Of a stretch of DNA of 64,000 bases, positions 2,299-64,000 are shown one piece after another. The stretch comes from Chloroflexota bacterium (GTDB lineage: Bacteria > Chloroflexota > Dehalococcoidia > Lucifugimonadales > UBA3495): positions 8,600 through 72,599 of the forward strand of contig VXTR01000052.1 in NCBI GenBank assembly GCA_009837355.1. Direction: 5' to 3'. Position numbers and translations under genes: made by a program. Within the stretch, counting starts at the first letter, position 1, and every line of letters starts with the position of its first letter. Below the pieces are notes generated by a model, which saw only the letters and a list, made by a program, of their open reading frames with translations, had not been told where the DNA came from and made no database searches.

Positions 2299-2537
2299 GA
2301 TGAGGTTTCCTCTCGTATCGTGATGCTCCGATGGTTGGAGAGGCCATTATAAACTACCGACGGCGCAGGGCAATCTGCTGCTGTGGCGCGGCATTTGACC
2401 CTCTGCCGGCTGCCGTCTATACTGCCGGCGGGTTGGCCGCCGACCACTATTCTTTTCCGGCCGGCCCGGCCGCTACCTCATTCCCGGCCGCTCACCGCTT
2501 CACGGCGACGGCGCTAACGTATCGAGGAGGTGTTATC

Positions 2538-3017
<480 letters not shown>

Positions 3018-3020
3018 GCG

Positions 3021-6433: not shown

Positions 6434-7336
6434 TTGAAAATCTTGCTCACCAACGACGACGGCATTCACGCTTCCGGGCTGTGGGCTGCCGCCCGCAGCC
6501 TTTCCGCTGTCGGTGAAGTGGCCGTGGTCGCGCCCGACCGGGAGCAGTCCGGCGTCGGGGCGTCGATGACGCTGCACGCCCCGCTGTTCGCTCACCAGGT
6601 GCCGGCCGAGCAATACCTGTTGCAACACGCCCCCGGTGACGATACGCCACCCCGCAGCGCCGACGCCGTGCGGGAACCGTCCGGCAACGCCGACCTTGAC
6701 CTGCCCAACCCTATCACGGCCTGGGCCGTCCAGGGCACGCCCGCCGATTCGTGCATCCTGGCGCTGGAGCAACTGGTGAACCCGAAGCCCGACCTGGTGG
6801 TCAGCGGCATTAACCGGGGTTCCAACATGGGTTGGGACGTCATCGTCTCAGGGACGGTGGGCGCAGCGATACAGGGGTTCGTTCGTGGCTATCCCACCAT
6901 CGCCATATCCGTTGGTTCGGTGCAGTCGCCTCGCTACGGGCTGGCGGCGCAGGTAGTGGCCGCTCTGGCCCGCCGTCTGGCCGACGCGCCGGAGGTGTCG
7001 CCGCCGTACTTCCTAAACGTCAACGTACCCAACGAGCCGGCCGAGAAAATCGCCGGCGTGCGGATAACCCGCTTGGGCGGACGCGCCTACGGCGAGTCGG
7101 TGCGCACCGAGGAATCCTTCGGCCACCGTCGATACTGGATTTCCCGCAACCGGCCCATTCTTGCTGGGGGTGACGGCACCGACATATCCGCCCACAAGGA
7201 GAACCACATCACCATTACGCCCATGGGGATGGCTTTCTCCACCACCGACGAGCGCATCAATCTGGTGCAGGGATTGGTGGACGGTGCGGGTATTCTACCG
7301 ACGCCGGCGCCGGCTGCGGACGCTGCCGCGGTTTGA
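6434..7336 (+). CDS. surE: 5'/3'-nucleotidase SurE
   Basis: In-frame TTG 6434 gives the canonical SurE N-terminus 'LKILLTNDDGIHASGL'. GINRGSN motif present. About 300 aa, longer than typical because of an internal insert and a C-terminal Ala/Pro tail. Confidence 0.88.
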   Translation: MKILLTNDDGIHASGLWAAARSLSAVGEVAVVAPDREQSGVGASMTLHAPLFAHQVPAEQYLLQHAPGDDTPPRSADAVREPSGNADLDLPNPITAWAVQGTPADSCILALEQLVNPKPDLVVSGINRGSNMGWDVIVSGTVGAAIQGFVRGYPTIAISVGSVQSPRYGLAAQVVAALARRLADAPEVSPPYFLNVNVPNEPAEKIAGVRITRLGGRAYGESVRTEESFGHRRYWISRNRPILAGGDGTDISAHKENHITITPMGMAFSTTDERINLVQGLVDGAGILPTPAPAADAAAV

Positions 7337-7762
7337 CCGGCGGGGGTGTTCCGGCGATTCTTCACGGTGTCTTTGACTTGTGGCGAGGCCTGCGTCCGGT
7401 TCGGCGTAGGCGGCAAACCCTCCGGTGTCGCGGATGCGCCGGATGCGTGGGCGGTCGCGGGTCAGCCACAGCGCCTGCGTGACGATGGTCAGGAAGATGC
7501 CCGGTGCGGCCAGCGCCAGCAGCGTTGGGTCAACCAGAGGTTCCCCGTTCTGGAAGCGCAATTGCGTGCGCAGGAATATCCAGCCGCCGCCGACAATTAT
7601 CCAGGCCCAGGACAGCGCGCCGGAAACCACGCCGTTGTGCCAGGGCGAGCGGATGAACAGGATTGCGCTGCAGGGCCACCAGACGAAGGTAGGAACGATG
7701 AACCAGCCCTGGTAGTACCAGGGCTTGAGGGCATCGGGTGGTTGGGGAGGCGGTGAGGACAT
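7295..7762 (-). CDS. Small integral membrane protein, unknown function
   Basis: ATG at 7762 overlaps the upstream gene's stop (ATGA). Trp-rich hydrophobic segments (WFIVPTFVWWPCSAILFI, WAWIIVGGGWIFL, LLALAAPGIFLTIV) and an Arg-rich tail. Confidence 0.55.
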   Translation of the reverse strand: MSSPPPQPPDALKPWYYQGWFIVPTFVWWPCSAILFIRSPWHNGVVSGALSWAWIIVGGGWIFLRTQLRFQNGEPLVDPTLLALAAPGIFLTIVTQALWLTRDRPRIRRIRDTGGFAAYAEPDAGLATSQRHREESPEHPRRSNRGSVRSRRRRR

Positions 7763-8903: not shown

Positions 8904-10253
8904 TCACACCGGCGGCGTGAGCTCAACGCCCAGTGCCTGCTCGCACCACGCCGCCGCTGACAATAAACGGCTCTCCGCGAAGGGCGACGCAATCAGCTGT
9001 ATCGACAGAGGCAGGCCCGATTCCGCCAGACCGGACGGGAGGGCGATCGCCGGCAGGCCACAGGATGTCCACGGCCCCTGAAAGGCCGGGTCGCCGGTGT
9101 TGGTGCGGTCGGCTTGGGACGGCGCCGGGGTAGCCGGGGTCAGCAACACGTCGCACTGCTGCGAGAGTTTCTGCATATCGTCGATAAACGTCCGCCGCCG
9201 CTCCAACGCCCGGGCGTACACGATGCCGTCGGTTGCCAGGCCATCGGCCAGCATTGCGCGCAGCTTGGGCTGGTAGTCCTCGGCCTGGTTACGATACATC
9301 GGTTCGTGGAAGGATGCCGCCTCCACCGCCATTATCAGCAACTGGTCGTTGAAGGCCGTTTCGATGCTGTCGGGCATCGGCAGTTCTTCAATCTCGGCTC
9401 CCGCCTGTGCCAGCTGCTCGGCAACACCGTCCAGATGGCGCCGGGTTTCGGTATCGGCTCGCTCGTAGAAATAACGGCGGAGCAGGCCGATGCGCGGGAG
9501 AGGTGGGTCCGCAATGGCCGAAAGATAATCTCCCACCGGCTCCCGGGAGGATACCGGGTCGGCAGCGTCAGGCCCGGCCATCACCTGCAAGAGCAGCGCG
9601 GCGTCTTCCACCGTACGCACCAGCCAGCCCACGGTGTCGAGGTTCCAACTCACCGGAACAACGCCGCGCCGGCTCACCCGCCCGAAGGTCGGCTTGAACC
9701 CGACCACGCCGTTGTACGCCGCCGGGCGCAGCACCGAGCCCACGGTTTGGGAACCCATTGCCGCCGGGCACATCCTCGACGCCACGGCGACGGCCGAGCC
9801 GCTGCTGCTGCCGCCGGGGGTATGGGCCGGGTTCCAGGGGTTGAACGTCGGAGATGGGTCCAGGCAGGCGAACTCGGTGGTAACCGCCTTGCCCAGCATG
9901 ATTGCGCCGGCCCGTTTGAGCAGCGTCAGGGACACGGCGTCGTAGTCCGGCACAAAGTCCTTATAGACCTCGCTGCCGGCGCGGGTGGGGATGCCGGCGG
10001 TATAGTAGATGTCCTTCATGCCGATGGGCACGCCGTGCAGCGGGCCCAGGGGGCGGCCGCGGGATATGGCGGCGTCGGCGCCGGCAGCGTCAGCGAGCAC
10101 GGTTTCCCGGTCAACATAAACCCAGGCTTGTAGCCGCTCATCCAGCGATTCGATGCGGTCGAGACAAGCCTCAGCCAGTTCGGTGGCGGTGAGGCGTCGC
10201 TGGGCGATGGCGCGGGCAGCTTGGGCCGCGGTGAGTTCGTTGGGGTTGGGCAT
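8904..10253 (-). CDS. Amidase-signature (AS) family amidase
   Basis: 449 aa. Catalytic Lys context GVPIGMKD, Gly/Ser-rich GGSSSGSAVAVA, and GSVLRPAA nucleophile region. Confidence 0.88.
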   Translation of the reverse strand: MPNPNELTAAQAARAIAQRRLTATELAEACLDRIESLDERLQAWVYVDRETVLADAAGADAAISRGRPLGPLHGVPIGMKDIYYTAGIPTRAGSEVYKDFVPDYDAVSLTLLKRAGAIMLGKAVTTEFACLDPSPTFNPWNPAHTPGGSSSGSAVAVASRMCPAAMGSQTVGSVLRPAAYNGVVGFKPTFGRVSRRGVVPVSWNLDTVGWLVRTVEDAALLLQVMAGPDAADPVSSREPVGDYLSAIADPPLPRIGLLRRYFYERADTETRRHLDGVAEQLAQAGAEIEELPMPDSIETAFNDQLLIMAVEAASFHEPMYRNQAEDYQPKLRAMLADGLATDGIVYARALERRRTFIDDMQKLSQQCDVLLTPATPAPSQADRTNTGDPAFQGPWTSCGLPAIALPSGLAESGLPLSIQLIASPFAESRLLSAAAWCEQALGVELTPPV

Positions 10254-10294
10254 GAAGATACACCTCCGCTAGTTCATCAACGTTAGGGAGCCGG

Positions 10295-11716
10295 TTACAC
10301 TCCCGGCGGGCGCCGCTCTCCCCAGTCCGTTGCCTGTTCGTAAGCATAGGCCAGGCGGAACAGGGTCGTTTCGTCGAAGGCGCGGCCGGCGATTTGCAGG
10401 CCGATGGGCAGACCCGATGCGGTGAAGCCGCAATTGATGGACAGGGCCGGCAGATTCGCCAGGTTGAACGGCGCGGTGAACCCCCGCCGTCCCTTGAAGC
10501 CGGTGATGACGTCTGCTTTTGTGCCCAGTCCGGCCGAGTCAGGTATCAGGGTGGCCGGCACCGAGGAGGCTGGCATTATCAAGGCGTCAACACCTTCCAG
10601 CGCTCCCAGAATCTGCCGGCGGAGAACATCCCGCAAGCGCGCCGCCTTCTGATACGCCCTGGACGGTATCACGCTGCCCATGAGCAGCCGCACCTGGTTG
10701 TTGTGGTCAAGCTCGCGCAGTTGTTCCGTGGATATGATGTCCCAGTTTAACATTGCGGCGTCGCTGCTGATGATGGCGTAGGAAATTTCCGACGAATTGA
10801 CGATGAGGGGCAGGGAGACCTCGCTGACTTCGGCGCCCAGACCGGCGAGAACCTGGGTGGCGGCAAGCACGGCGTCGCGGACCTCGGGGTCGTTGGCGTC
10901 GGTATGCACCCGCTCGGTGACGATGCCCAGCTTCAGACCCTTGACGTTGCCGTCCAGAGCGGCGGCATAATCCGGCACTGGCACGTCCCATGTCTGCTGG
11001 TCGTTGGGGTCGTGGCCGGCGATAGCCGCCAGGGTGTTGGCGCAGTCGGTAACGGTGCGGGAAACGGGGCCGGCCGTGTCCATGGACCAGCAGGCGCCGA
11101 ACACGCCATGGCGGCTGACCAGTCCGAGGGTGGGCCGGATACCCACCAGGCCACAGAAGGCCGCTGGGCCGCGGATGCTGCCGCCGGTGTCCTCACCTAG
11201 CGACGTAGCGCACAGAAAGGCCGCCGTCGCCGCGCCGGAACCACTGCTGGACGTGCCGGGGTTGCGGTTGGTGTCCCAAGGGTTGCGAGGCCGGCCGTAG
11301 GGATGACGGAAGGCGTCGCCGCTGGCGTACTCGCTCATGTTGAGCTTGCCCAACAGCACCGTGCCGGCGTCGCGCAGGCGCGACATGATGGTTGCGTCTT
11401 CGTCCGGGACGTTTTCGGCAAGGATGGTCGAGCCGTTGGTGGTTACGATGCCGGCGGTGTCGAACTGGTCCTTCACGGCTACTGGGACGCCATGCAGGGG
11501 CCCCCGGCGGTTGCCGGCGGCGATTTCAGCATCGGCCTGGCGAGCGTCGGCCCGAGCCCGTTCCGGTGTAACGGTGATGTAGGAGGCATAGTTGCCGTCC
11601 AGTCGGGCGATGCGTTCCAGGTAAGCCTCCGTAGCCTCCGTCGAGGACACCTCGCCGGCGGCGATGCGCATGCCCAGTTCAGTGGCCGAAAGGTAGCAAA
11701 TGCTCTCGTCCGCCAT
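10295..11716 (-). CDS. Amidase-signature (AS) family amidase (GatA/AtzE-like)
   Basis: 473 aa with GVPVAVKD, GTSSSGSGAATAA and DTGGSIRGPAAFCG. GGAGG RBS. Start lies 2 nt after the stop of the upstream micro-ORF. Confidence 0.9.
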   Translation of the reverse strand: MADESICYLSATELGMRIAAGEVSSTEATEAYLERIARLDGNYASYITVTPERARADARQADAEIAAGNRRGPLHGVPVAVKDQFDTAGIVTTNGSTILAENVPDEDATIMSRLRDAGTVLLGKLNMSEYASGDAFRHPYGRPRNPWDTNRNPGTSSSGSGAATAAFLCATSLGEDTGGSIRGPAAFCGLVGIRPTLGLVSRHGVFGACWSMDTAGPVSRTVTDCANTLAAIAGHDPNDQQTWDVPVPDYAAALDGNVKGLKLGIVTERVHTDANDPEVRDAVLAATQVLAGLGAEVSEVSLPLIVNSSEISYAIISSDAAMLNWDIISTEQLRELDHNNQVRLLMGSVIPSRAYQKAARLRDVLRRQILGALEGVDALIMPASSVPATLIPDSAGLGTKADVITGFKGRRGFTAPFNLANLPALSINCGFTASGLPIGLQIAGRAFDETTLFRLAYAYEQATDWGERRPPGV

Positions 11717-46905: not shown

Positions 46906-47334
46906 ATGAAGATTGGGATTGGTTCCGACCACGCCGGGTTTGAATACAAAGGCAAGTTGCTGGCGCTGCTGGCCTACCTGGGCCACGAGGCGGTTGACTA
47001 CGGAGCCTACTCCGACGAAGCCAGCGACTACCCGCAGTGGATTCGGCCGGTGGCGGAGTCCGTGGCCCGGGGCGAGGTTGACCGGGGCATAGTGCTGGGC
47101 GGCTCCGGCAACGGCGAGGCAATCGTCGCCAACCGCGTGCCCGGCGTGCGCTGCACGCTGTGCTGGAACGTGGAATCAGCCCGCTACGGACGGCAACACA
47201 ACGACTCCAACGTGCTGTCCATGGGGCAGCGGATGGTGTCCTGGGAAACGGCGCGGGAGATTGTGGATGCGTGGCTGACCACCGAGTTCGAGGGTGGGCG
47301 GCACCTGCGCCGCATCAATCAGATAGACGAGTAA
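46906..47334 (+). CDS. rpiB: Ribose-5-phosphate isomerase B (RpiB/LacAB family)
   Basis: 'MKIGIGSDHAGFEYK' N-terminus. 142 aa from ATG 46906. Confidence 0.88.
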   Translation: MKIGIGSDHAGFEYKGKLLALLAYLGHEAVDYGAYSDEASDYPQWIRPVAESVARGEVDRGIVLGGSGNGEAIVANRVPGVRCTLCWNVESARYGRQHNDSNVLSMGQRMVSWETAREIVDAWLTTEFEGGRHLRRINQIDE

Positions 47335-47926
47335 CCCCAATCATGCTGTCCCGGGTAACGAGCCCGGCCAACTCCTCTTCGCTCATCCCCTCGGTCCCGG
47401 CCGGTCGGCACGGGAGCACGAGATAGCGCATATCGGCGGTGCTGTCCAGCACATCAACTCTGGTATCCGTGGGTAGCGTCGTCCCGAATTCCGCCATCAC
47501 GCCGCGAGGGTCGCTCACGGCGCGGGCACGGTAGGCCAGGCTCTTGTACCAGTCGGGCGGCCGGCCCAGCAGCATCCGGGGGTAGCAGGAGCACAGCGTG
47601 CAGACCACCAGGTGATGCAAGTCGTCGGTGTTCTCAACGACGGCCAGATGTGGTGTCTCCGCAGGTATGCTGATGCCCATTTCGGCCAGAGCGGAACGGG
47701 AATCGGCCAGGAGGCGAGCCTTGAACGCGGCGTCCGTCCAAGCGCGGGCGACGACCCTTGCGCCGTCGGCGGGAGTGCGCCCGTCCATCAGGTTCACCTG
47801 CTGCTGCACCTGGTCGGCGGTGAGCAGGCCCTTGTCGGCCAGCAGCGCCTCGATTGCCACCGAGCGCAGGGCAACCTCGCTCATGGGCTGGTCGTGTACG
47901 TGGTCTTCAACGTGGGTTGCGGTCAT
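47315..47926 (-). CDS. Nitrile hydratase alpha-subunit-like protein (Co-type VCTLCSC site)
   Basis: ATG 47926 with GGGAGGG RBS, 203 aa. 'HHLVVCTLCSCYPRMLLGRPPDWYKS' (nt about 47582-47608) is the NHase/SCNase metal-binding claw. Thr at position 2 of the claw is the cobalt-type variant. Confidence 0.88.
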   Translation of the reverse strand: MTATHVEDHVHDQPMSEVALRSVAIEALLADKGLLTADQVQQQVNLMDGRTPADGARVVARAWTDAAFKARLLADSRSALAEMGISIPAETPHLAVVENTDDLHHLVVCTLCSCYPRMLLGRPPDWYKSLAYRARAVSDPRGVMAEFGTTLPTDTRVDVLDSTADMRYLVLPCRPAGTEGMSEEELAGLVTRDSMIGVTRLSD

Positions 47927-47936
47927 ACTTCCCTCC

Positions 47937-49052
47937 CTAGTTGTGGCAGCCCCGCGCCTCGATATCCCACACCGCTTCGACCATGCCGTCGCGGATACCG
48001 ATGAAGCGGTCCCAGCGGCTGACCATAGCGTCTTGCTGGCCGGGGAGCAACAGAACCTGGTCGCCGACGGCCAGTTCAGCGCCTTCCGCCACCTGGAACA
48101 CAGTGCGGTCGGTGTCCATGGCAACGGCTTCAACGCCGGGGCGGCCTTCCACCCGGGGCAGGCCCTTGATGCCGCACACCGCGCGGGCGCCGGCGTCGCC
48201 GATGGCCGTTCCCGGCCGAGGCACGCTGACGATGGTGCTCAGCACCTTGCCGGCCAGGTGAAAGTCCTGGATGTAATCGTAGGAGGTTTCCATCACCAGG
48301 TAGGAGCCGCCCTGGATTTCGGTAACCTCAGGCATGTCGCCGGCGACGTCGTAGCTCCAGGTTTCGCCCGTGGATACGATTTCCACCGGAAGGCCGTCGG
48401 CAAGCATGGCTTCCCGCAGGTCCAGAACAGGCTGGACAAGGCGGCGAAGTTCGGAGACCCGGTCTTCCAGGTCGCCGGAGACTTCGGCCATCATCTGATG
48501 GCTCATCACGCCTTTCAGGGAAAGACCCGGCAGCGAATCAATCAGCCGGGCCAGGGCCACGCCGGATCCCACTCCATCCTCTCCTTCCTGCACGCCGCAG
48601 CGGAGCAGTCCGGTTTCCTGCTCGATGACCACGCCCAGGTTCACGCCTTGGTCAGCGGCGGCCTGAGAGAGGTCGCGGGCGTTGGTTTCGTTTTCGCAGG
48701 CCACCAGAATCTCGGCCTGGTCGGCCAAAGCGCAAAGCCGGGCAATCTTGGGCTGGGCGACCACCTCGCTGGTTACGAATACGCTGGCCACGCCGCCCTG
48801 CACCATCACCTCAGCTTCGGCGACCTTGGCGGCGCACACTCCGCCGATGGTGCCGCCCCGTTGAATCTGCCGGAGGGCCAAAGCCGGGCTCTTGTGATTC
48901 TTGCTATGGCCGCGCAGCTTGCTGTGGCGTCCTTCGTAGTAGTCGGCGATCACATCCATGTTGTGGTCCAGCGCGTCCATATCCAGGATGAGGCATGGAG
49001 TATCCAGCTCCGCCATGGGAGTGCCGGGTTGGGGTTCATACGCTTGCGGCAT
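47937..49052 (-). CDS. DSD1/D-threonine aldolase-type PLP enzyme (alanine racemase N-terminal fold), canonical Lys present
   Basis: ATG 49052 with GGAGG RBS. 'LRGHSKNHKSPALA' matches the RPHxKTHK PLP-Lys motif. 371 aa. Confidence 0.78.
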   Translation of the reverse strand: MPQAYEPQPGTPMAELDTPCLILDMDALDHNMDVIADYYEGRHSKLRGHSKNHKSPALALRQIQRGGTIGGVCAAKVAEAEVMVQGGVASVFVTSEVVAQPKIARLCALADQAEILVACENETNARDLSQAAADQGVNLGVVIEQETGLLRCGVQEGEDGVGSGVALARLIDSLPGLSLKGVMSHQMMAEVSGDLEDRVSELRRLVQPVLDLREAMLADGLPVEIVSTGETWSYDVAGDMPEVTEIQGGSYLVMETSYDYIQDFHLAGKVLSTIVSVPRPGTAIGDAGARAVCGIKGLPRVEGRPGVEAVAMDTDRTVFQVAEGAELAVGDQVLLLPGQQDAMVSRWDRFIGIRDGMVEAVWDIEARGCHN

Positions 49053-49131
49053 GGAAGTACCTCCGAGGTTTCCTGGTATCTGGTTGAATCCGGCCGTGGA
49101 TACTTGGCCGGCGGATTGCAGCAATGCCGAA

Positions 49132-50250
49132 CTATCCCAGCTGTCCCCGGCCGGAGACGGGCCAGTACCCCACCAGCCGGCCGCCCTGAACGGCGCGGAT
49201 GTAGTCATACTGGTTCACGCACAGGGCCAGGTTGTACGGAACCAGGCGGACCTTGTCGTTGGGCATCAGCTGCTCGGTGGCCGGCCCGTCCAAGTCCAGG
49301 ATGCCGTGCTCGGCGCTGAACCTGGCGGCGACGGCGCCCGGGAATCCATGGAGAACCGGCACGCCGAAATCGGGGCCGGTGGTCTTGTGGCCGGCGTCCA
49401 CCACCGCCCGGCCGGCGACGGGATGGCTGATAACCGTCGCCAGCACTGTGGCCGCGGATTGCAGTTCGGGGCGAACCCGCAAGGTCTCCGCATCCATCAG
49501 AGGATACACTCCCGCCTGAACCTCGGTGATGCCCGACAGCTGCGAGACCACGTCGTAGTTGTAAGTGCTGCCGGCGCTCACCGTGGCAACCTCCAGGCCG
49601 GCCTGCTCTAGGTCGCTGCGAGTGTCCAGCACCGGCTGCAGACGGCGAAGGGTTTCGGCGTCCAGCTCGGCGTGGTCGGCGATGGGCAGCGGGCCCTCGT
49701 AGGTCATTATCCCCTGGAAGGACAAGCCGGCCGCGTCCGCAACCGCGCGGGCCAGGTCAACCGCATCCCTACCGGGTGCAACACCGCCAAACCCGTAGCC
49801 GGAGTCGATGTCCACCAGCACGCCCAGGGTAACACCGGCCGCCCGCGCAGCCTCGCTGAGGTCGGCGACGTTGCGGGCGTCGTCCACGGCCACGCTCAGC
49901 GTAATTCGTCCCGCCAGGGCGACCAACCGGCGAATCTTGGCGGCGGTTACCACCCGACCGGCGATGAGTATGTCGTCGATGCCAGCATCGTCGCCGGCAA
50001 ATGCCTCGGCTTCTGCCAGCGAACTCACGGCCACGCCGCCGGAGCTGCCGCCGGCGTCCAGCTGGTACCGGGCGATATCAGGGCAGCCATGGCAGGAGAC
50101 GTGGGGGCGCACCAGGACCTGGCCGTCGCCGCCAATAGCGCCGTGCAGTCGCGCGATGTTCTGCTCCATTATCCCCAGGTCAACCACCAGGGCCGGCGTG
50201 TCCAGTTTCTCGACGGGGGCGCCAAATGGCTGAAATATGGGCCGCTCCAT
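49132..50250 (-). CDS. DSD1/D-threonine aldolase-like paralog lacking the PLP lysine
   Basis: 372 aa with the same overall layout ('LDTPALVVDL...'). The motif reads 'VRPHVSCHGCP' (nt about 50082-50114), so Ser and Gly occupy the positions of both Lys residues. Confidence 0.7.
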   Translation of the reverse strand: MERPIFQPFGAPVEKLDTPALVVDLGIMEQNIARLHGAIGGDGQVLVRPHVSCHGCPDIARYQLDAGGSSGGVAVSSLAEAEAFAGDDAGIDDILIAGRVVTAAKIRRLVALAGRITLSVAVDDARNVADLSEAARAAGVTLGVLVDIDSGYGFGGVAPGRDAVDLARAVADAAGLSFQGIMTYEGPLPIADHAELDAETLRRLQPVLDTRSDLEQAGLEVATVSAGSTYNYDVVSQLSGITEVQAGVYPLMDAETLRVRPELQSAATVLATVISHPVAGRAVVDAGHKTTGPDFGVPVLHGFPGAVAARFSAEHGILDLDGPATEQLMPNDKVRLVPYNLALCVNQYDYIRAVQGGRLVGYWPVSGRGQLG

Positions 50251-50298
50251 TGCTCAGGTCCCTCTCAATTGCGATGCTGGCCGGCAGGATAGCACAAA

Positions 50299-50601
50299 TC
50301 AGGCCGGTTCCAGCCAGTGCTGGTACACGTCCACCAGCAGCGTATCGTCTGGATTGCCGGCGTAGTCTGGCCACAGGTCGGTCTGGCGCAGCCGGACGCG
50401 GTACAGCGGCTGCCGCGGCAACCCGTCGCCCCCATGCGCCAGCGATTCAGGATTGGGATACGTGCCGCACAGCGCGTCCACCACGCCGGTGTGCCCCTGG
50501 ATGTAGGCCGGCGTGCGGAAGTGATGGGCCGGCGCTCCAACGCGCACGCGCACAGCAGCGCCGTCAGGGTAGCGGACGGTTTCGGAAGAAATGGTAGTCA
50601 T
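50299..50601 (-). CDS. Nitrile hydratase beta-subunit C-terminal half (stand-alone, SH3-like)
   Basis: 100 aa. 'HHFRTPAYIQGHTGVVDAL...PLYRVRLRQTDLWPDY...TLLVDVYQHWLEPA' follows the GHxRxPxYxRGKxG...LYxVxF...LWG...VxVDxWExYLE pattern of NHase beta C-termini. Confidence 0.8.
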   Translation of the reverse strand: MTTISSETVRYPDGAAVRVRVGAPAHHFRTPAYIQGHTGVVDALCGTYPNPESLAHGGDGLPRQPLYRVRLRQTDLWPDYAGNPDDTLLVDVYQHWLEPA

Positions 50602-50625
50602 GGCATCCGCACTCAGGCTTGAGCA

Positions 50626-51048
50626 TCAGGGTTGGCGTTGCAGTATAACGCGCAATGAGGCGGGCGTGATAATCGGGATTACGGACTCTTCGGTAAGAGC
50701 CAATAGGTCGGGATCCTTTGTTACCAGATAATCTGCTGCGGCTTGGTAGGCGAGTACGAGGAACATCTGGTCTTTGGGATCGCGGCAGGTTGGCGTTTCC
50801 GGGGGCGAGTCAGGTATGGCAACCCTTTCGCAGTGATCAAAGTAGGCAGCAGCAGTGTCGGTGATCTGCTCCTCGGAGATTCCGAGTCTGGGGTTGCGCA
50901 GTGTTCGGATTAACTCTGCCTTAGTGTCGCTACTGATAAGCGGCACGATATGCTGTTGTTCCGACGCCTCACGAAGCCATATGTCACTGCTGGTTGTCCT
51001 GGCGATTGGCATCAGCACAGCATTGGTGTCCAAAACCACCCTTATCAT
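50626..51048 (-). CDS. PIN-domain toxin (PIN_3/TIGR00305-like)
   Basis: 140 aa. 'IRVVLDTNAVL' N-terminal acidic motif and 'YLVTKDPDLL' C-terminal Asp. ATGA overlap with the upstream gene. Confidence 0.78.
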   Translation of the reverse strand: MIRVVLDTNAVLMPIARTTSSDIWLREASEQQHIVPLISSDTKAELIRTLRNPRLGISEEQITDTAAAYFDHCERVAIPDSPPETPTCRDPKDQMFLVLAYQAAADYLVTKDPDLLALTEESVIPIITPASLRVILQRQP

Positions 51049-52151
51049 TGGCCGCTTCTTTCGGCGCGGGTCTCTGCTATCGCAGCGAGAATATCGTCCT
51101 CGGTGAGTTCCAGGGCTTGTATGCGTCTCAAAGCCGCTTTGACTCGTTCTGGATTACTCCGATGCGTCCGGTTAGAGTTTTTGAAGGCTATGATGTCGCC
51201 CAAGTCTTTGATGTTGTGGCTCCGCATAGGTTTGCCGAAGCCGTTCCGTAGGACCTCCCACGTTTCAACCAGCGGGTAAATTTCTTGATGCAGTACCAAA
51301 ACGGCATCAAACGCGCTGATGTCCGGCATGGTAGCTGCATCCCAATCGGACGCGTACAGAAACTGCTGATTGTGTAGGATGAGGCAGTATTTAGCCCCGT
51401 TCAGAGCTGTCAGTTTGCTTGGCTTGCGGCCGTGCTTTATGGCGTCATTGAGGGCCGTTTGGAGAGTGTCGGGGCCGTCGGGCATCTGCGGCAATGGCAT
51501 TGCCAGCAAATCGAGTTGCTCCGCGATGCCTCGCTTATCGTTCGGATGCCCAACCTTGCGGTGGTAGTTTTCTTTAGGATCAAGGCGCAGTTCGGTGAGT
51601 TCGAAGGCCCATGTGACGCCATCAATAGTTGCCCGATAGTCAATGGGATCGTTCGGATTTTCCCGATCCCAAGCGACGTTGACAGTTAGGCCCTGTTGGG
51701 TAAGGAAAATGGCCGCTTTCCGCATCAGGTCGTACTCTCGGAGTTCCTTATCGGACATAGCATCGAACTTGTTCGCCATCCTGGTTCGCTCTTCCACTAT
51801 CACGCTGATGTCGGCCGCGGCCTCGCGGAGGGTTTCGGCCACGGCCATGGGATTAGTTGCGCAGCTCCATAGGGTGATTGGGCTAAATGAATCGGCATAC
51901 TCGGGATAGCGGTCTGTGATGTATTGCCGCAAGTCCGGCAGCAAATGCGGCAACCCGTAGGTTCGGATTTTATTCTGCGCCTGGGTTTCGGCAGCCATGA
52001 ACTCGTCCCGCGCCTGTAGGAGCGCGCTGTAGGCGCCGCATTCCTGTAATGCGGTTGGAGCAGCGCCGGCAACTATCTCCGCCGCCCGGTTGATTACGGT
52101 TGCGGCGAAGTCTGCGTTGACAGTTGGAGTGTCGCTTTTTGAGGTAGCCAT
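51045..52151 (-). CDS. 368-aa hypothetical protein, upstream partner of the PIN toxin
   Basis: Clean ATG. Helical N-terminal third, a central region of unknown fold, and a C-terminal helical tail (RVKAALRRIQALELTEDDILAAIAETRAERSGQ) ending in the ATGA overlap with the PIN gene. Confidence 0.6.
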   Translation of the reverse strand: MATSKSDTPTVNADFAATVINRAAEIVAGAAPTALQECGAYSALLQARDEFMAAETQAQNKIRTYGLPHLLPDLRQYITDRYPEYADSFSPITLWSCATNPMAVAETLREAAADISVIVEERTRMANKFDAMSDKELREYDLMRKAAIFLTQQGLTVNVAWDRENPNDPIDYRATIDGVTWAFELTELRLDPKENYHRKVGHPNDKRGIAEQLDLLAMPLPQMPDGPDTLQTALNDAIKHGRKPSKLTALNGAKYCLILHNQQFLYASDWDAATMPDISAFDAVLVLHQEIYPLVETWEVLRNGFGKPMRSHNIKDLGDIIAFKNSNRTHRSNPERVKAALRRIQALELTEDDILAAIAETRAERSGQ

Positions 52152-52200
52152 GATTACTGTACGAGGTCACGCGATCACGAATTTGGATGCTTGTACCTCG

Positions 52201-52230
52201 ATTATCGTTGGATAAAATGCACGCTGTCAA
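52201..52230 (-). promoter_or_regulatory. Near-consensus promoter (TTGACA, 18-nt spacer, GATAAT) for the 368-aa/PIN pair
   Basis: TTGACA is the reverse complement of 52225-52230 and GATAAT the reverse complement of 52201-52206. About 50 nt upstream of ATG 52151. Confidence 0.55.
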
Positions 52231-52243
52231 CACGGAAACGTGA

Positions 52244-52420
52244 TTAGAAGTGATCACCCACCGCGTCGGCGTAGCAGTATCCAAATCGGCTGAGACGTAT
52301 TAATCGGTGGAGTAATTCATTATCGTCGTCAGTATATCCTTCCGATTCTAGTAAATCTCGATAATCCGGGAACCGATCCAGCCAGCGGACCAGCTTGGCA
52401 TCTGCCTCCGCGATCTTGTT
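52244..52420 (-). other. 58 sense codons continuing in frame after the TGA stop of the 286-aa gene (readthrough, pseudogene or recoding candidate)
   Basis: The frame continues as NKIAEADAKLVRWLDRFPDYRDLLESEGYTDDDNELLHRLIRLSRFGYCYADAVGDHF then TAA (52244-52246). No ATG, GTG or TTG is present until 5 codons before its end. Confidence 0.4.
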
Positions 52421-53281
52421 TCAATTGTAGCCTGGCTCGTAAGCCATTCGAATTCTGTTCGACTCTTCTCTCAGATTATCGGGGATTCGGCGCATTACCC
52501 CGTCTTCGTCTGACACCAATAACGGAGCTTGCTGTTCTAGATCTCGTCGCGTCCATGGTCCTGACTCAATACCCGGTCTGGCTGCAGCCATCATTAGCTC
52601 AGTCTCGGACGTCCAGAATGCGTATGGACGCACATGTAGGGTTTTCATTATTCGAACTGCTTCTTTAATGATGTCGTCAGCAGCAGTAGCTACGGAACTA
52701 TCGATCTGCGGCCTGCATTCCGAAACTGGCAGGTCCCAAAGCTCGTAATATGGTCGTCCGATGACGGCCTCAATATCGGCTGTACCTATCCGGTCATTCC
52801 CAAGCGTCCAGGATGCCAGAGCGATCTGTCCCTCCATCTTCTCTCGTGGGTCGGATGAGTGATATTTGCGGCGGATCTCATGCTTGTTGCGCAAATCAAC
52901 GGATTCGATTGGTCGTGTCCGTGAAGTTTCAAATACGATGATCATGTGATCCCGCATTCCAAAAAACCGTGCGCACTGGTACCACAGTGACTTTTGATCT
53001 GAGTACCGTGTTAAGATGCGCGCCCGTTCGTCACGGTCTGCAAAGGTTTCCACATGGAACCGCTGATCAAGTTCCGTGACAAATCGGTCACGATACTCAC
53101 CTGCCTGGCGGTCCAAGTAGCCCGTACGCCAGTAGATAGCGTCCCAATATAGGTAATCTTGGAACTTCAATTGATGGAAGAAAGTTGAAATCCCGTTCGG
53201 ATTCCAAGATTGACCGTTTACGCGGGTCTCACGCGGTAGTCCTAATGCATCCCACATACCAGTCTCCGTAACAGTCATCAC
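52421..53281 (-). CDS. 286-aa hypothetical protein (island gene), start overlapping the NHase beta-N stop
   Basis: GTG 53281 or ATG 53278 overlaps the TGA of the upstream gene (CTGTGATGACT). AT-richer codon usage than the flanks. No family recognised. Confidence 0.6.
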   Translation of the reverse strand: MMTVTETGMWDALGLPRETRVNGQSWNPNGISTFFHQLKFQDYLYWDAIYWRTGYLDRQAGEYRDRFVTELDQRFHVETFADRDERARILTRYSDQKSLWYQCARFFGMRDHMIIVFETSRTRPIESVDLRNKHEIRRKYHSSDPREKMEGQIALASWTLGNDRIGTADIEAVIGRPYYELWDLPVSECRPQIDSSVATAADDIIKEAVRIMKTLHVRPYAFWTSETELMMAAARPGIESGPWTRRDLEQQAPLLVSDEDGVMRRIPDNLREESNRIRMAYEPGYN

Positions 53282-53580
53282 AGCCCCCGCTGCCGCAGCT
53301 CGGCGGCCTTGGCGTCGATCTCCGCCGCCGTCAGGATGCCCTTTTCAATCAGCAGGATTTCCAAGGCCGCCGTCCATTTTTCGTAGTAGGACAGCGATTC
53401 GTACTGCTCCGGTGGCAGGCTCTCGATGGCCCGCCGCATCTCGTCGGTGGTGCGGATGCCCTGCGCGGCCAGCACCTGGTGCACGGCGTCAACCCGACGC
53501 TCCCAGTCGCTGTATTCGTGCTCGGTGCGGTCGATGGGCGTGTCGTCGGGCCAGCCGCCCCGGTCGTGTGCTGCGGGCAT
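53278..53580 (-). CDS. Nitrile hydratase beta-subunit N-terminal half (stand-alone)
   Basis: ATG 53580 with AAGGAG RBS, 4 nt after the deacetylase stop. 'HDRGGW...IDRTEHEYSDWERRVDAV...DEMRRAIESLPPEQYESLSYYEKWTAALEILLIEKGILTAAEI' follows the NHase beta N-terminal pattern. Confidence 0.8.
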   Translation of the reverse strand: MPAAHDRGGWPDDTPIDRTEHEYSDWERRVDAVHQVLAAQGIRTTDEMRRAIESLPPEQYESLSYYEKWTAALEILLIEKGILTAAEIDAKAAELRQRGL

Positions 53581-53584
53581 ACTG

Positions 53585-54403
53585 TTACGCTCCTTTCTCC
53601 CACATCTCGGCGAGGGCGTCGGCGCGCATGAACCGGACGCCGGGGAAGGTCTTGATGTACTCAATCAGCCGTTCCAGCATCAGCAGCCGCCCCGGCCGCC
53701 CGATGTACTGCGGGTGCATGGTCAGATTGTAGCAGCGTCCGTAGCGGTAGATGCCGCGGAACTCCTCCGCCCAGCTCACGAACACCTCGTCGGGGTTGCG
53801 CATGGGCCCCAGGCGGTTGGCCGACGGCGCGTAGGCGAAGTGGGGCGCGTCGTCCAGCAGCCAATGGATGGGCAGCTCCACCATCTGCCGGGGCGGGTCG
53901 CCGCCGGACACGAAATACGGCGCGTCGTCGCCCATCAGGCTGCTGTCGTAGCAGAAGCCGTGCTTGGCCAGCAGGTCCAGCGACACCGCGCTCAACTCCC
54001 AGCTGGGCGAGCGGTAGCCCACCGGCGCGGTGTCGGTCAGCTCGCCCAGGATGCCGATGCCCTTGACCAGCACTTCCTCCTCCTCGGCCGGCGTCATGGT
54101 GGCCGGCGGCTCGTGGAGGTAGCCGTGGTGGGCGACTTCATGGCCACGTCCGGCGATCTCCCGCACCAGGTCGGTATGGGTCTCGGCCACCTGGCCGGGG
54201 ACGTAGAAGCTGGCCGGAATGCCCTGGGCGTCCAGCAGATCCAGGATGCGCGGCGTGGCGACGCTGGGGCCGTACTCGGCCATGGACAGCAGGCTGGGGT
54301 AGTTGGCGAAGTCGGCGTTGCGCCGCAGCCAGGAAGAAACGCCGTCCACGTCAAAAGTAATCAGCGCCACGCACTGTATGTCATCGGGCCAAATGCCGGA
54401 CAT
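53585..54403 (-). CDS. Polysaccharide deacetylase (NodB-homology/PuuE-like) family hydrolase
   Basis: 272 aa. 'VALITFDVDGVS', 'GHEVAHHGYLHE' and 'RSPSWELS' match the NodB metal and catalytic motifs. Confidence 0.8.
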   Translation of the reverse strand: MSGIWPDDIQCVALITFDVDGVSSWLRRNADFANYPSLLSMAEYGPSVATPRILDLLDAQGIPASFYVPGQVAETHTDLVREIAGRGHEVAHHGYLHEPPATMTPAEEEEVLVKGIGILGELTDTAPVGYRSPSWELSAVSLDLLAKHGFCYDSSLMGDDAPYFVSGGDPPRQMVELPIHWLLDDAPHFAYAPSANRLGPMRNPDEVFVSWAEEFRGIYRYGRCYNLTMHPQYIGRPGRLLMLERLIEYIKTFPGVRFMRADALAEMWEKGA

Positions 54404-54494: not shown

Positions 54495-54686
54495 TCAGCC
54501 GGCTTGAGCGATAATGCCGCCCATAGTGTTGGGGGGAATGTCTTTACCATGATGACGTGGGATGGGCACCATCCTGCCGTCCTTTATTGCCTTCGTATGC
54601 TTGCGGCCCTGATTGATTGTCCACCCGTCGTTGCGAAAGGCCCGCAGAACGTCGGAGATGGTAAAACCGGGAACCCGAGGCGGCAT
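54495..54686 (-). CDS. hicA: HicA-family mRNA interferase toxin
   Basis: 63 aa from ATG 54686. 'VLRAFRNDGWTINQGRKHTKAIKDGRMVPIPRHHGKDIPPNTMGGIIAQAG' fits the HicA dsRBD-like pattern. ATGA overlap with the upstream gene. Confidence 0.8.
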   Translation of the reverse strand: MPPRVPGFTISDVLRAFRNDGWTINQGRKHTKAIKDGRMVPIPRHHGKDIPPNTMGGIIAQAG

Positions 54687-55330
54687 CAGACGCGCTCGCG
54701 CTGCTCCCACAGGGCAACGTAGGCCACTTCGATACTGGCAAGGGCGATGCCATAGTACGGGTCGCGCCGGAGCGCAGCGTCATAATCGGCGATAGCCAAG
54801 TCATACTGCCCGCTGTTGAAGTGCGCGTCGCCTCGCCGGCAATAAGCCTCGGCGTTGTCGGGGGCAAGGGATATGGCGGTGGAGCAATCGTCAATGACTT
54901 GGCCATACTCTCCCTTGTTGAGATAAGCGCCGGCCCGTTCTATGTAGGCTTTGACATCATTGGGATTGCGTTCAATGGCGGCGGTGCAGTTGGATACTAT
55001 TTCATCCCAATCCGCCGGAAGGACAGTGGTTATTTCGATGCCGTAACCCTCGGTCCGGTATTCAGCGACGGTAGCCGCCATGGCGTTAGGGGTAAAGAGC
55101 GGTTCCACGCCGTCTTCGGCGTAGCTGTCCAGCAAAATCGAGATTGCGTCGGCAATCATCTCCAGCGCTTCCTCGCGAGTGTCGCCCTGGCTGGCGCAAC
55201 CTAGCGAGGGGCATAGCACGGCATAGCCCTCGTCTTCTGGATGTGTAACCAGCAATACTTCGTACTCCTGACCTTTGCCGGCCCGGGTTACGTGGTCGGC
55301 ATCGGCCAAATTGGAGGCATTGGACGTCAT
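54686..55330 (-). CDS. HicB-like antitoxin domain fused to TPR repeats
   Basis: 214 aa. N-terminal 'YEVLLVTHPEDEGYAVLCPSLGCASQGDTREEALEMIADAISILL' is HicB-like. The C-terminal half holds about 3 TPR units (AIERNPNDVKAYIERAGAYLNKGEYGQVIDDCSTAISLAPDNAEAYCRRGDAHFNSGQYDLAIADYDAALRRDP). No RHH or HTH domain seen. Confidence 0.7.
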   Translation of the reverse strand: MTSNASNLADADHVTRAGKGQEYEVLLVTHPEDEGYAVLCPSLGCASQGDTREEALEMIADAISILLDSYAEDGVEPLFTPNAMAATVAEYRTEGYGIEITTVLPADWDEIVSNCTAAIERNPNDVKAYIERAGAYLNKGEYGQVIDDCSTAISLAPDNAEAYCRRGDAHFNSGQYDLAIADYDAALRRDPYYGIALASIEVAYVALWEQRERV

Positions 55331-62473: not shown

Positions 62474-63064
62474 TTAGTCTGTCAGTAGTCGTTCCACCTC
62501 ACGACAAAAGCGGTTGAAAGAATGGGAACGGCTACGGGCGAGGGAAACGTCAATGGCACTGGAAAATGCAGCTTGATCGTCTGTTTCTTTGTATCTCCTG
62601 TTAAGCACGTTTCGCTCTAGCCATTCCTTGGGGTTTCTGATTTCCTCAATGTTCGACGGTATCTGAAAAGCGGCGTCAGATCCGACGTGGTGGGCAATTG
62701 ATTCAGAACTCGCTATGAACCAGGTTTCATACTCCCTATTGGCCACAATGACTGAAGAGGGATTATCTGGGAATCGGGATTGAATTCTTTGCAACAACTG
62801 CGTTCCGAGTTCGGCAGGACAGCTATCGTCGGCATCCAAGACGACCATTAACTTCGCAGTTGGTCCACCTTCTTTGATCGCCATTTCAGAATAACGCTCG
62901 AGTTCCCCGGGCGCATTTACCAACATACCCCAAGGAACCCGGAATGGCTTAGAAATCACCGGGTAAATTCCCGACCCTATAGCAGATAGTATTGTAGAGA
63001 GCAAAACACGGAGGGCGACCTCCTCTCCGTGACCTTCAACTATGGATGCGATAACAACTGGCAT
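62474..63064 (-). CDS. DUF4276-family protein (Toprim-like partner of an ABC-type ATPase)
   Basis: 196 aa. 'VVIASIVEGHGEEVALRVLL', 'MVVLDADD' and 'REYETWFIAS' match my memory of the DUF4276 pattern. AT-richer than the bulk of the window. Starts 4 nt after the ATPase stop. Confidence 0.65.
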   Translation of the reverse strand: MPVVIASIVEGHGEEVALRVLLSTILSAIGSGIYPVISKPFRVPWGMLVNAPGELERYSEMAIKEGGPTAKLMVVLDADDSCPAELGTQLLQRIQSRFPDNPSSVIVANREYETWFIASSESIAHHVGSDAAFQIPSNIEEIRNPKEWLERNVLNRRYKETDDQAAFSSAIDVSLARSRSHSFNRFCREVERLLTD

Positions 63065-63068
63065 ATCG

Positions 63069-64000
63069 TCATACCAGCCGGCCAGTGAAATCTGCTAAGG
63101 ATTCTAGTGACTTCTCAGTTGGCGTCAGTCTTTTCTGGCGCAGCAACTCCCCCGGCGTCGCTAATCGCTCACGTATGAGTTGGCGGCTACTTTCAATAAC
63201 CGGCCCGATTTCAGTCCGGCCGGCATCACTGTCGGTCGCCAAAATTGAGTTGATGGGAATGTCCTTGCGGTCAAGCAGGTCTGGGCCATGGGTAGTTACA
63301 AGCACCTGCGCCCTGTCTTGTCCATCCATCAGCGCATCCCACAAAATGCCCGCTGCCGCTGGATGCAGGGCGATTTCCGGCTCTTCTATGCCGATCAGCG
63401 ATGGCGAATCGCCATCACCTTGCAGCAGGGCAGTGAGCACTGCCAAGGCACGCAAGGTCCCATCTGACATATTGATGGCTGGAAACCTCCAGGGGGATTT
63501 CTGTCCGGCGACTTGCTGCCGGAATTGGAGAGTTTCCAGGTTGCCAATCGCAATACGTTCCACACTCTGAACGCCGGGGGTTACCTGACGAAGATATTTC
63601 TGGATGAGTTGATGGCTGGGCGCATTTCGCTTTTCCAGCGCGGCCAGGACGCCGGCGAGATTATGCCCGTCCGATTCCAATATGTACCCTGGGTCGGGAG
63701 ATTGTGGGGAGCGCATGACGTCCGGTGAAAAACTGTAAAAGGCCATGTCGGTTAGCGCGTCGTACACTGGCCGAAACTCGTCAATGTTGCTGGCGCTGAC
63801 GAGGAATAGGCGGTCTAAGGCCGGTCGTGGCAACTGCACCTCAATATTAGTATCAGCTATCTTGCCTTCCTTAACTACAAAGCGCATCGGAGTGCCCAAG
63901 GCATCGGCGCTTCCTATCTCGCAGGTCTCGTTGAGAACGGAAAAACCGCCATTGCTTTGCGATGTCACTTCAAAACCATATTTACCCTGCTTCATTCCAC
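63069..64000 (-). CDS. ABC/AAA_21-type ATPase, C-terminal part (N-terminus beyond window)
   Basis: 'MSDGTLRALAVLTALLQ' (signature-like), 'LIGIEEPEIALHP' (Walker B) and 'VLVTTHGPDLLD' (H-loop). No Walker A is visible, so the gene continues past nt 64000. Confidence 0.75.
   Translation of the reverse strand, partial: GMKQGKYGFEVTSQSNGGFSVLNETCEIGSADALGTPMRFVVKEGKIADTNIEVQLPRPALDRLFLVSASNIDEFRPVYDALTDMAFYSFSPDVMRSPQSPDPGYILESDGHNLAGVLAALEKRNAPSHQLIQKYLRQVTPGVQSVERIAIGNLETLQFRQQVAGQKSPWRFPAINMSDGTLRALAVLTALLQGDGDSPSLIGIEEPEIALHPAAAGILWDALMDGQDRAQVLVTTHGPDLLDRKDIPINSILATDSDAGRTEIGPVIESSRQLIRERLATPGELLRQKRLTPTEKSLESLADFTGRLV

Follow-up and report, generated by a model that had tools for sequence, protein, structure and literature searches.

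Predicted split-beta, activator-free cobalt-type nitrile hydratase of a known class in a cassette-rich Dehalococcoidia operon

The question raised by the locus described here is whether a nitrile hydratase (NHase) that has its beta subunit encoded in two pieces, and that is found in unfamiliar company, is a new kind of enzyme. The locus is a cluster of nine genes at 47315-54403, all on the minus strand, of a 64,000-nucleotide stretch of contig VXTR01000052.1 from a Chloroflexota bacterium; this whole stretch is referred to below as the window. The original prediction, made from the DNA letters, had placed three pieces of a Co-type NHase in one cluster with two DSD1-type pyridoxal phosphate (PLP) enzymes and a NodB-type deacetylase. 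Checks of the open reading frames (ORFs) and their domains confirmed its gene order, strand and positions. The split of the beta subunit was also found to be real: the domains PF21006 and PF02211 lie on separate ORFs, and the alpha subunit contains the VCTLCSCY claw. Judged by its sequences, the betaN-betaC-alpha set is an ordinary member of a known, abundant class of three-subunit, activator-free Co-NHases, and the enzyme type is not new. The link of its neighbours (a CE4/NodB gene, two DSD1-like genes and a low-GC island) to the hydratase is unproven. The hydratase genes are the following.

betaN: 53278-53580, minus strand, 100 aa, NHase beta N-terminal half (PF21006, 83 bits)
betaC: 50299-50601, minus strand, 100 aa, NHase beta C-terminal half, the SH3-like subunit (PF02211, 75 bits)
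alpha: 47315-47926, minus strand, 203 aa, NHase alpha subunit (PF02979, 267 bits) with the VCTLCSCY claw

Relatives of the cluster were collected by a scan of species-representative genomes, which yielded 80 loci, all from metagenome-assembled genomes of Dehalococcoidia/Chloroflexota, including SAR202 and sponge-derived bins (L-numbers are labels of the related loci and genomes compared). In each of the 78 related Dehalococcoidia loci that have all three genes, betaN ended in a stop codon and betaC was a separate ORF; the three genes, predicted to form one enzyme, were thus co-conserved. At empty sites, which are free of the island that parts the two halves in the window, betaN and betaC were joined by a stop/start overlap of the TGATG type. 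As all 78 loci carry the split, the island-free ones included, this implies that it is ancestral and was not made by the island. Scanning of metagenomes with the betaC alignment gave at least 574 confirmed relatives, of which 80 loci were kept. Beta was split in 75 of 76 of these loci, and the order betaN-betaC-alpha was observed in all 71 loci where the three genes were found. A tblastn search of the PLSDB plasmids with betaC gave three split-beta loci (Planktothrix agardhii, Streptomyces sp. NBC_01176 and Rhizobium ruizarguesonis; all PGAP-annotated), in which a stand-alone betaC, annotated as 'SH3-like domain-containing protein', adjoins nthA. Their order is betaN-betaC-alpha in Planktothrix and Streptomyces and betaC-alpha-betaN in Rhizobium.

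The subunits of the window were closer to these three-piece sets than to two-piece enzymes. BetaN scored 75-77 bits to the three-piece betaN of Planktothrix and Streptomyces versus 52 bits to two-piece beta subunits in the PDB, and betaC scored 73-99 bits to the betaC of Streptomyces and Planktothrix (99 for the latter) versus 48 bits to the two-piece ones. Identity to the annotated plasmid sets was 54-61% for alpha, 39-41% for betaN and 38-52% for betaC, and the CSCYPR...PPDWYK stretch is shared with them. Their neighbours are different: genes for aquaporin and for Co transporters (HoxN, CbtAB), or else a cluster of the AsnB/TauD type, with no CE4 or DSD1-like gene in any of them. Close homologs of the alpha protein number in the thousands. 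Annotation pipelines hide split-beta NHases under names such as the one quoted above.

An enzyme of this layout has been characterised in Streptomyces canus, where ScNHase consists of AnhD (beta N half, 10.4 kDa), AnhE (beta C half, 11.4 kDa) and AnhA (PMC7329996). The S. canus genome is without an activator gene; AnhD is a metal and self-subunit-swapping chaperone as well as a subunit, and both small subunits are needed for activity (PMC7329996). NHase activators in turn resemble the N-termini of beta subunits (PMC7329996). The set in the window is like AnhD-AnhE-AnhA in its two beta-half proteins of about 10-11 kDa and its Co-type alpha of about 21 kDa, in the ancestral order betaN-betaC-alpha, and in being activator-free with a betaN that is probably of the chaperone type (PMC7329996), but it belongs to a Chloroflexota bacterium and lies in an operon with an island, two DSD1-like genes and an upstream CE4 gene. 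The other characterised three-subunit enzyme is the toyocamycin NHase ToyJKL of Streptomyces rimosus, which likewise has a split beta (PMC12648386); unlike the present set it sits in the toyA-M deazapurine cluster, and no such genes occur in the window. The likeness to AnhDEA and ToyJKL is drawn from their published descriptions, and the sequences compared, with positive outcome, were the annotated Streptomyces, Planktothrix and Rhizobium sets. The view of the enzyme as unusual found no support, for the three-subunit, activator-free layout is documented (PMC7329996, PMC12648386) and common in metagenome and plasmid loci. Split beta and missing activator are no anomaly; they mark a large, environmentally abundant NHase class.

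The assignment of alpha to the NHases was supported by the NCBIfam equivalog for NHase alpha, TIGR01323, with a score of 253.5 that passes the cutoff of 249.85, whereas the score against TIGR03887, the model for the gamma subunit of thiocyanate hydrolase (SCNase), was 182.4 bits and under the cutoff of 291.45; an assignment to SCNase did not follow. In the PDB, Co-NHase alpha subunits were matched with E-values of 1e-60 to 1e-65 and SCNase gamma with 1e-42. The pair of beta arginines proposed as a check of the substrate pocket was present: the Arg in DEMRRAIE of betaN aligned to the beta Arg of 'DEFRH' in the Co-NHase beta of P. putida (3qxe), and that in HHFRTPAY of betaC to the second beta Arg, in 'GHTRMPRY' of the same protein. 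The tyrosines of YYEKW in betaN were conserved in the alignment to Co-NHase beta; in these enzymes the two beta arginines and the Tyr touch the oxidised cysteines. Against TIGR03888, which describes full-length beta, the two halves scored 67.6 and 64.4 bits, under the cutoff of 152.2, and model positions of about 99-133, the middle beta segment, were covered by neither. The ratio of non-synonymous to synonymous substitution rates (dN/dS) indicated purifying selection on all cluster genes; it was 0.05-0.14 for alpha, 0.06-0.13 for betaC and 0.03-0.14 for betaN, betaC and alpha together, island-bearing genomes included. The cluster resembles the classical Co-NHase operon (beta, alpha, activator and usually an amidase) in that its alpha passes the model nitrile_alph, its claw and its beta Tyr and Arg pair are in place, and a hydrolase gene stands alongside; it differs in that beta is split and without its middle segment, no activator is present, and the hydrolase is of the CE4 type rather than a signature amidase.

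No separate activator-like ORF was found in the 64-kb window, to which this search was limited, and the sole accessory-protein-like stretch in it was betaN, which scored 23.7 against the accessory-protein model TIGR03889, under the cutoff of 46. The predicted lack of a visible activator gene was thus borne out, and it is consistent with known biology since betaN is the only accessory-like sequence present. BetaN is predicted to be a structural subunit and is the probable self-subunit-swapping and cobalt chaperone, because AnhD of S. canus has that role (PMC7329996).

Some further features of the alpha subunits were observed. The N-terminus of the window alpha (47885-47926) has a His-rich tail, HVEDHVHDQP, and similar tails, such as HDGHDHQH and HNHNHDHNH, are present in L068, L074 and L083-L086. 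Since a His-rich tail is also seen on a classical alpha accompanied by an accessory protein, it is not specific to the activator-free class. The motif CSCYPR was tried as a marker of three-piece alpha subunits and rejected, as it was present in about one third of 150 diverse alpha representatives (W in about one sixth). Many NHase alpha representatives (P0244-P0390) have a length of 280-560 aa and carry the alpha domain C-terminally, which suggests frequent fusions of the beta-alpha or betaC-alpha type alongside split forms. In L042 a lone alpha gene (10001-10597), 80% identical to the window alpha, lies in another genomic context with no betaN or betaC within 10 kb.

The gene in front of betaN is the first one of the operon.

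NodB/CE4: 53585-54403, minus strand, 272 aa, predicted metal-dependent amidohydrolase or deacetylase (Polysacc_deac_1, PF01522, 64 bits)

Its stop codon lies 4 nt before the start of betaN. The protein stayed below every NCBIfam equivalog cutoff (PuuE, TIGR03212: 77 bits versus 424.6), and its best PDB matches were 3rxz of M. smegmatis (E 1e-55), HpPgdA (3qbu) and PuuE (3cl6). The nearest solved relative, 3rxz, is uncharacterised and has the generic name 'polysaccharide deacetylase' only. In the sequence alignment the stretches TFDVD and HEVAHHGYLH corresponded to the motifs of the Asp-His-His metal triad of 3rxz and 3qbu; dN/dS was 0.03-0.15. In most Dehalococcoidia loci the gene adjoins betaN on the upstream side, within a syntenic block SerRS-NodB-beta-alpha-RpiB-ADH-LLM. 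In more distant Dehalococcoidia other hydrolases take its place: an arginase-family ureohydrolase is found directly upstream of betaN in L068 (8347-9351), with LLM and MBL genes and a MATE exporter downstream, and two Amidohydro_2 proteins in L074 (6955-9035). This gives some support to the logic of a hydratase plus a hydrolase. An amidase-like role of the CE4 protein is put forward here tentatively, as somewhat less than an even chance.

Two DSD1-like genes separate betaC from alpha.

DSD_A: 49132-50250, minus strand, 372 aa, Ala_racemase_N and D-ser_dehydrat domains
DSD_B: 47937-49052, minus strand, 371 aa, Ala_racemase_N and D-ser_dehydrat domains

Both proteins have the two-domain architecture of D-threonine aldolase and BhcC (DSD1, metal-dependent PLP enzymes of fold-type III), to which they are about 30-36% identical. 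The best PDB matches of DSD_A were the D-threonine aldolase 7dib (E 2.5e-53) and the BhcC-type aldolase 6qkb, and those of DSD_B were 6qkb (E 1e-56) and 4v15; against the BhcC equivalog NF045642 the scores were 228 bits for DSD_A and 236 bits for DSD_B, about one third of the cutoff of 690. They depart from these aldolases in their active sites. In DSD_A, RPHVSCHGCP aligned to RPHAKSHKCP, so that a Ser replaces the Lys that forms the Schiff base with PLP. Of 37 sequences, 36 have Ser at this position, one has Phe and none has Lys; the only invariant lysines, K105, K289 and K333, cannot replace it. Besides, PYNLALC (N-L-A) aligned to PSHVDPT, by which both metal ligands are gone. DSD_B kept the PLP Lys (RGHSKNHKSP) in 38 of 38 sequences, whereas PGQQDAM against PGHCDPT (Q-Q-D) revealed a Gln for the metal His with the Asp retained, invariant in the same 38. 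By alignment, neither protein has an intact aldolase metal site. The prediction of two DSD1-type PLP enzymes therefore stood for the domains, which both proteins have, and fell for the catalysis, as at most one of the pair can be a canonical PLP enzyme when DSD_A has no Schiff-base Lys. DSD_A is probably a non-catalytic or partner subunit, and the two most plausibly form a heterodimer with one active site. To our knowledge, no pseudoenzyme partner has been described in the DSD1/D-threonine-aldolase family. The homologs retrieved for DSD_A were all orthologs, none of them below 76% identity, and no Lys-less DSD1 relative was found on plasmids, where only canonical BhcC/DSD1 genes at about 36% identity were present. 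This conserved Lys-less paralog, always beside a Lys-bearing one, is a candidate pseudoenzyme partner and the most interesting leftover of the locus.

The pair was found in the window and in 37 of 42 related loci of its clade, whose alpha subunits are 81-96% identical to that of the window (most at least 84%); in every outgroup alpha comes immediately after betaC, with no DSD genes between them. Three genomes that are free of the pair (L036, L037 and L038) nested in the DSD clade in both neighbour-joining trees, that of the flanking genes and that of the NHase genes, and two further ones (L041 and L052) did so in the tree of the NHase genes; these trees are without support values. The nesting implies one gain of the pair between betaC and alpha, followed by at least three losses or allele replacements. 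The dN/dS values were 0.13-0.19 for DSD_A and 0.05-0.10 for DSD_B, and the GC content at third codon positions (GC3) of DSD_A was 0.82. The host-like composition of the pair and its tight spacing make a functional link to the hydratase plausible.

Between betaN and betaC the window contains an island of other composition.

Low-GC island: 50602-53277, minus strand, about 2.7 kb, with isl1, isl2 and the PIN_3 gene
isl1: 52421-53278, minus strand, 285 aa, orphan island gene
isl2: 51045-52151, minus strand, 368 aa, orphan island gene
PIN_3 gene: 50626-51048, minus strand, 140 aa (PF13470, 58 bits), last island gene

The GC3 of the cluster genes was 0.79-0.91 versus 0.51-0.64 for the island genes (0.51 for isl1, 0.64 for isl2 and 0.60 for the PIN_3 gene, which scored 44.6 against TIGR00305, above its cutoff). 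The island is placed precisely between the stop codon of betaN and the start codon of betaC (junctions at 53276-53280 and 50599-50601). The ATG of isl1 overlaps the stop codon of betaN (TGATGACT; window 53276-53280), which is the place of the translational coupling of betaC in island-free genomes. Cassette genes that start at an ATG overlapping the betaN stop were also present at the junctions of L033, L010, L015 and L029, and they belong to at least two unrelated cassette families. L033 and L002/L023 have isl1 orthologs at this junction, and isl2 was found there together with the PIN gene in 10-12 genomes. As the stop of isl2 overlaps the start of the PIN gene, isl2 is presumed to be the partner or antitoxin of the PIN toxin. 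Neither isl1 nor isl2 had a match in Pfam, NCBIfam, PADLOC or PHROGs, a profile of 10 isl2 sequences had none among PDB sequences, and the single-sequence AF2 models were unusable (pLDDT 37 for isl1 and 38 for isl2). Apart from a shared ATGACT, the ends of the island showed neither direct nor inverted terminal repeats; such repeats as were seen are short and chance-like. No strong terminator was predicted in the island, and no riboswitch, other Rfam family or tRNA was found in the 64-kb window. Upstream of isl2 a sigma-70-like promoter, TTGACA-18-GATAAT, was noticed at 52230-52201 on the minus strand (11 of 12 matches to a consensus that may not apply in Chloroflexota). If active, this promoter-like site might serve betaC and the genes after it as well.

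Insertions between betaN and betaC were present in 20 of 79 loci as modular cassettes, almost always co-oriented, of the types isl2 plus PIN, a pair of 127-aa and 337-aa proteins, isl1, a 550-aa HNH protein, DUF7689 and a PaREP1-like protein. Insertions of at least 400 nt occupied SerRS|NodB in 46% of the loci, NodB|betaN in 22%, betaN|betaC in 25%, alpha|RpiB in 33% and ADH|LLM in 85%, and were almost never seen at DSD_B|alpha or betaC|DSD_A. The idea that betaN|betaC is a unique integration hot spot was rejected, four other junctions of the block being equally or more often occupied. As the other junctions receive insertions too, the island counts as ordinary accessory cargo in a cassette-rich lineage. 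The locus illustrates that co-oriented foreign cassettes are tolerated between the subunit genes in the operon of a multi-subunit enzyme, and that a cassette can even seize the start used for translational coupling. In several islands degenerate partial copies of betaN, from its 3' end, or of betaC, from its 5' end, were observed (L041 6997-7149; L002/L023 5762-5944; L007 5810-6013; L020 6313-6375), suggesting that cassettes spread by recombination via the flanking NHase genes. The nearest locus, L003, is 92-99% identical to the window in its cluster proteins and has no betaN|betaC island, with an insertion of 1.1 kb at betaC|DSD_A (6574-7678) and one of about 5 kb at serS|CE4 (194-5150). This implies that cassette content turns over between very close genomes.

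The reading of the whole cluster that we favour, with moderate confidence, is that of a three-subunit Co-NHase with a CE4 amide hydrolase, an inserted DSD heterodimer and an unrelated island cassette. BetaN and betaC would together stand in for a normal beta, and alpha would bind Co via the CTLCSC claw, to give a working nitrile hydratase that needs no activator, betaN doubling as cobalt and subunit-swapping chaperone. The amide formed by the hydratase would be hydrolysed by the CE4 protein, so that a nitrile would be converted via the amide to an acid and ammonia; hydrolysis of the amide is the role of the amidase in classical NHase operons. The DSD heterodimer would convert an amino-acid-like compound that the same pathway yields or uses, without being required by the hydratase, and the island would be an accessory cassette that makes use of the gap left where two subunits are translated separately. 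Several observations weigh against this. CE4 enzymes are typically de-N/O-acetylases and not hydrolases of primary amides. A CE4 homolog was nearby in none of the 80 metagenome loci kept and in none of the three plasmid split-beta loci, the neighbours in both being heterogeneous, and the adjacency of CE4 and betaN is weak evidence because related Dehalococcoidia are syntenic across the whole block anyway. The hydratase does not need the DSD pair, as relatives without it keep an intact NHase and an intact betaC-alpha junction. Furthermore, an operon that tolerates unrelated insertions may hold the pair as a fixed passenger. The last point leads to the alternative that the DSD pair, and possibly CE4, are unrelated passengers fixed in one clade of a permissive operon, with an NHase that acts alone on an unrelated nitrile. 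We consider this possible though less probable. It accounts for the insertions at five junctions, for the nested DSD-less genomes L036, L037 and L038, and for the metagenome and plasmid loci, where no DSD1-like or CE4 gene stands beside the split-beta NHase. It accounts less well for the host-like GC3 (0.79-0.82) and low dN/dS of the DSD genes, for their presence in most loci of the clade, and for their tight (10-80 nt), co-oriented arrangement at junctions where insertions are rare.

The remaining alternatives concern the hydratase itself. It is very unlikely that betaN is an activator of the P14K/NhlE type and that betaC and alpha form the functional enzyme on their own. The weak match to TIGR03889, the position of betaN as the only accessory-like sequence of the window and the known resemblance of activators to beta N-termini (PMC7329996) would fit such a role, but the cutoff of that model was not reached while NHase_beta_N gave 83 bits, the active-site Arg and the Tyr-Tyr motif are retained, and activity in S. 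canus required both small subunits, with AnhD as subunit and chaperone (PMC7329996). Still more improbable is that the enzyme is an SCNase or another member of the NHase superfamily that does not act on nitriles. SCNase belongs to the same superfamily and is also made of three polypeptides with a split beta, and its gamma, beta and alpha chains are detectable relatives; however, SCNase has an activator gene (PMC7193024), the window alpha passed the NHase model and failed that of SCNase gamma, the PDB E-values were about 20 orders of magnitude better for Co-NHase alpha subunits, the small subunits have 100 and 100 aa versus 157 and 126 aa in SCNase, and a sulfur-oxidation context is absent. Finally, the 2.7-kb insertion parts betaN from betaC and removes their stop/start overlap, from which it could be argued that the island broke the operon and that the NHase is decaying in this genome. 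This is hard to believe, since no ORF is damaged, the genes of the island run in the direction of the operon without a predicted strong terminator, 20 species-level genomes with an island at this site keep intact NHase genes, and betaC and alpha have similar dN/dS values in genomes with an island (0.06-0.14) and without one.

No published description of this NHase/CE4/DSD cluster was found in the literature that could be searched. The claim of an unfamiliar neighbourhood holds to that extent; its weight is limited, as the DSD pair is restricted to a subclade and was lost at least three times and unrelated cassettes occur throughout. The proposed survey of split-beta clusters revealed a recurrent NHase trio with CE4 and DSD neighbours that are lineage-specific. 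The original idea of a pathway for an amino- or hydroxy-nitrile is conjectural; the analysis spoke neither for nor against it. The further proposal, that an obligate, prozyme-like DSD_A/DSD_B heterodimer together with the NHase and the CE4 protein forms an undescribed route by which marine and sponge-associated Dehalococcoidia obtain a usable amino acid from an amino- or hydroxy-nitrile (or its amide), is speculative and rather unlikely. Should the CE4 and DSD genes truly be partners of the hydratase, abundant uncultured Chloroflexota would have a new route of nitrile salvage.

Additional cassettes were noticed along the block. Between serS and CE4 the window carries a gene for a HicA toxin together with one for a HicB-like antitoxin to which TPR repeats are fused (54495-55330, minus strand). 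At 62474-63995, minus strand, lies a pair of a DUF4276 gene and an AAA_21 (AbiEii-like) ATPase gene with a GC3 of 0.48-0.59, and the ATPase ORF reaches the last bases of the window. An insertion of 1.3-1.6 kb at NodB|betaN is present in a whole subclade (L054-L057, L059, L061, L062, L066, L067, L069, L079 and L081). At the same site an Abi_2-like gene (weak match) was seen in L060 and a weak CoiA_N match in L053. In L054, L055 and L057 the insert of the subclade encodes a protein of 386-389 aa that belongs to the Fic/DOC family according to Pfam, run on L054.

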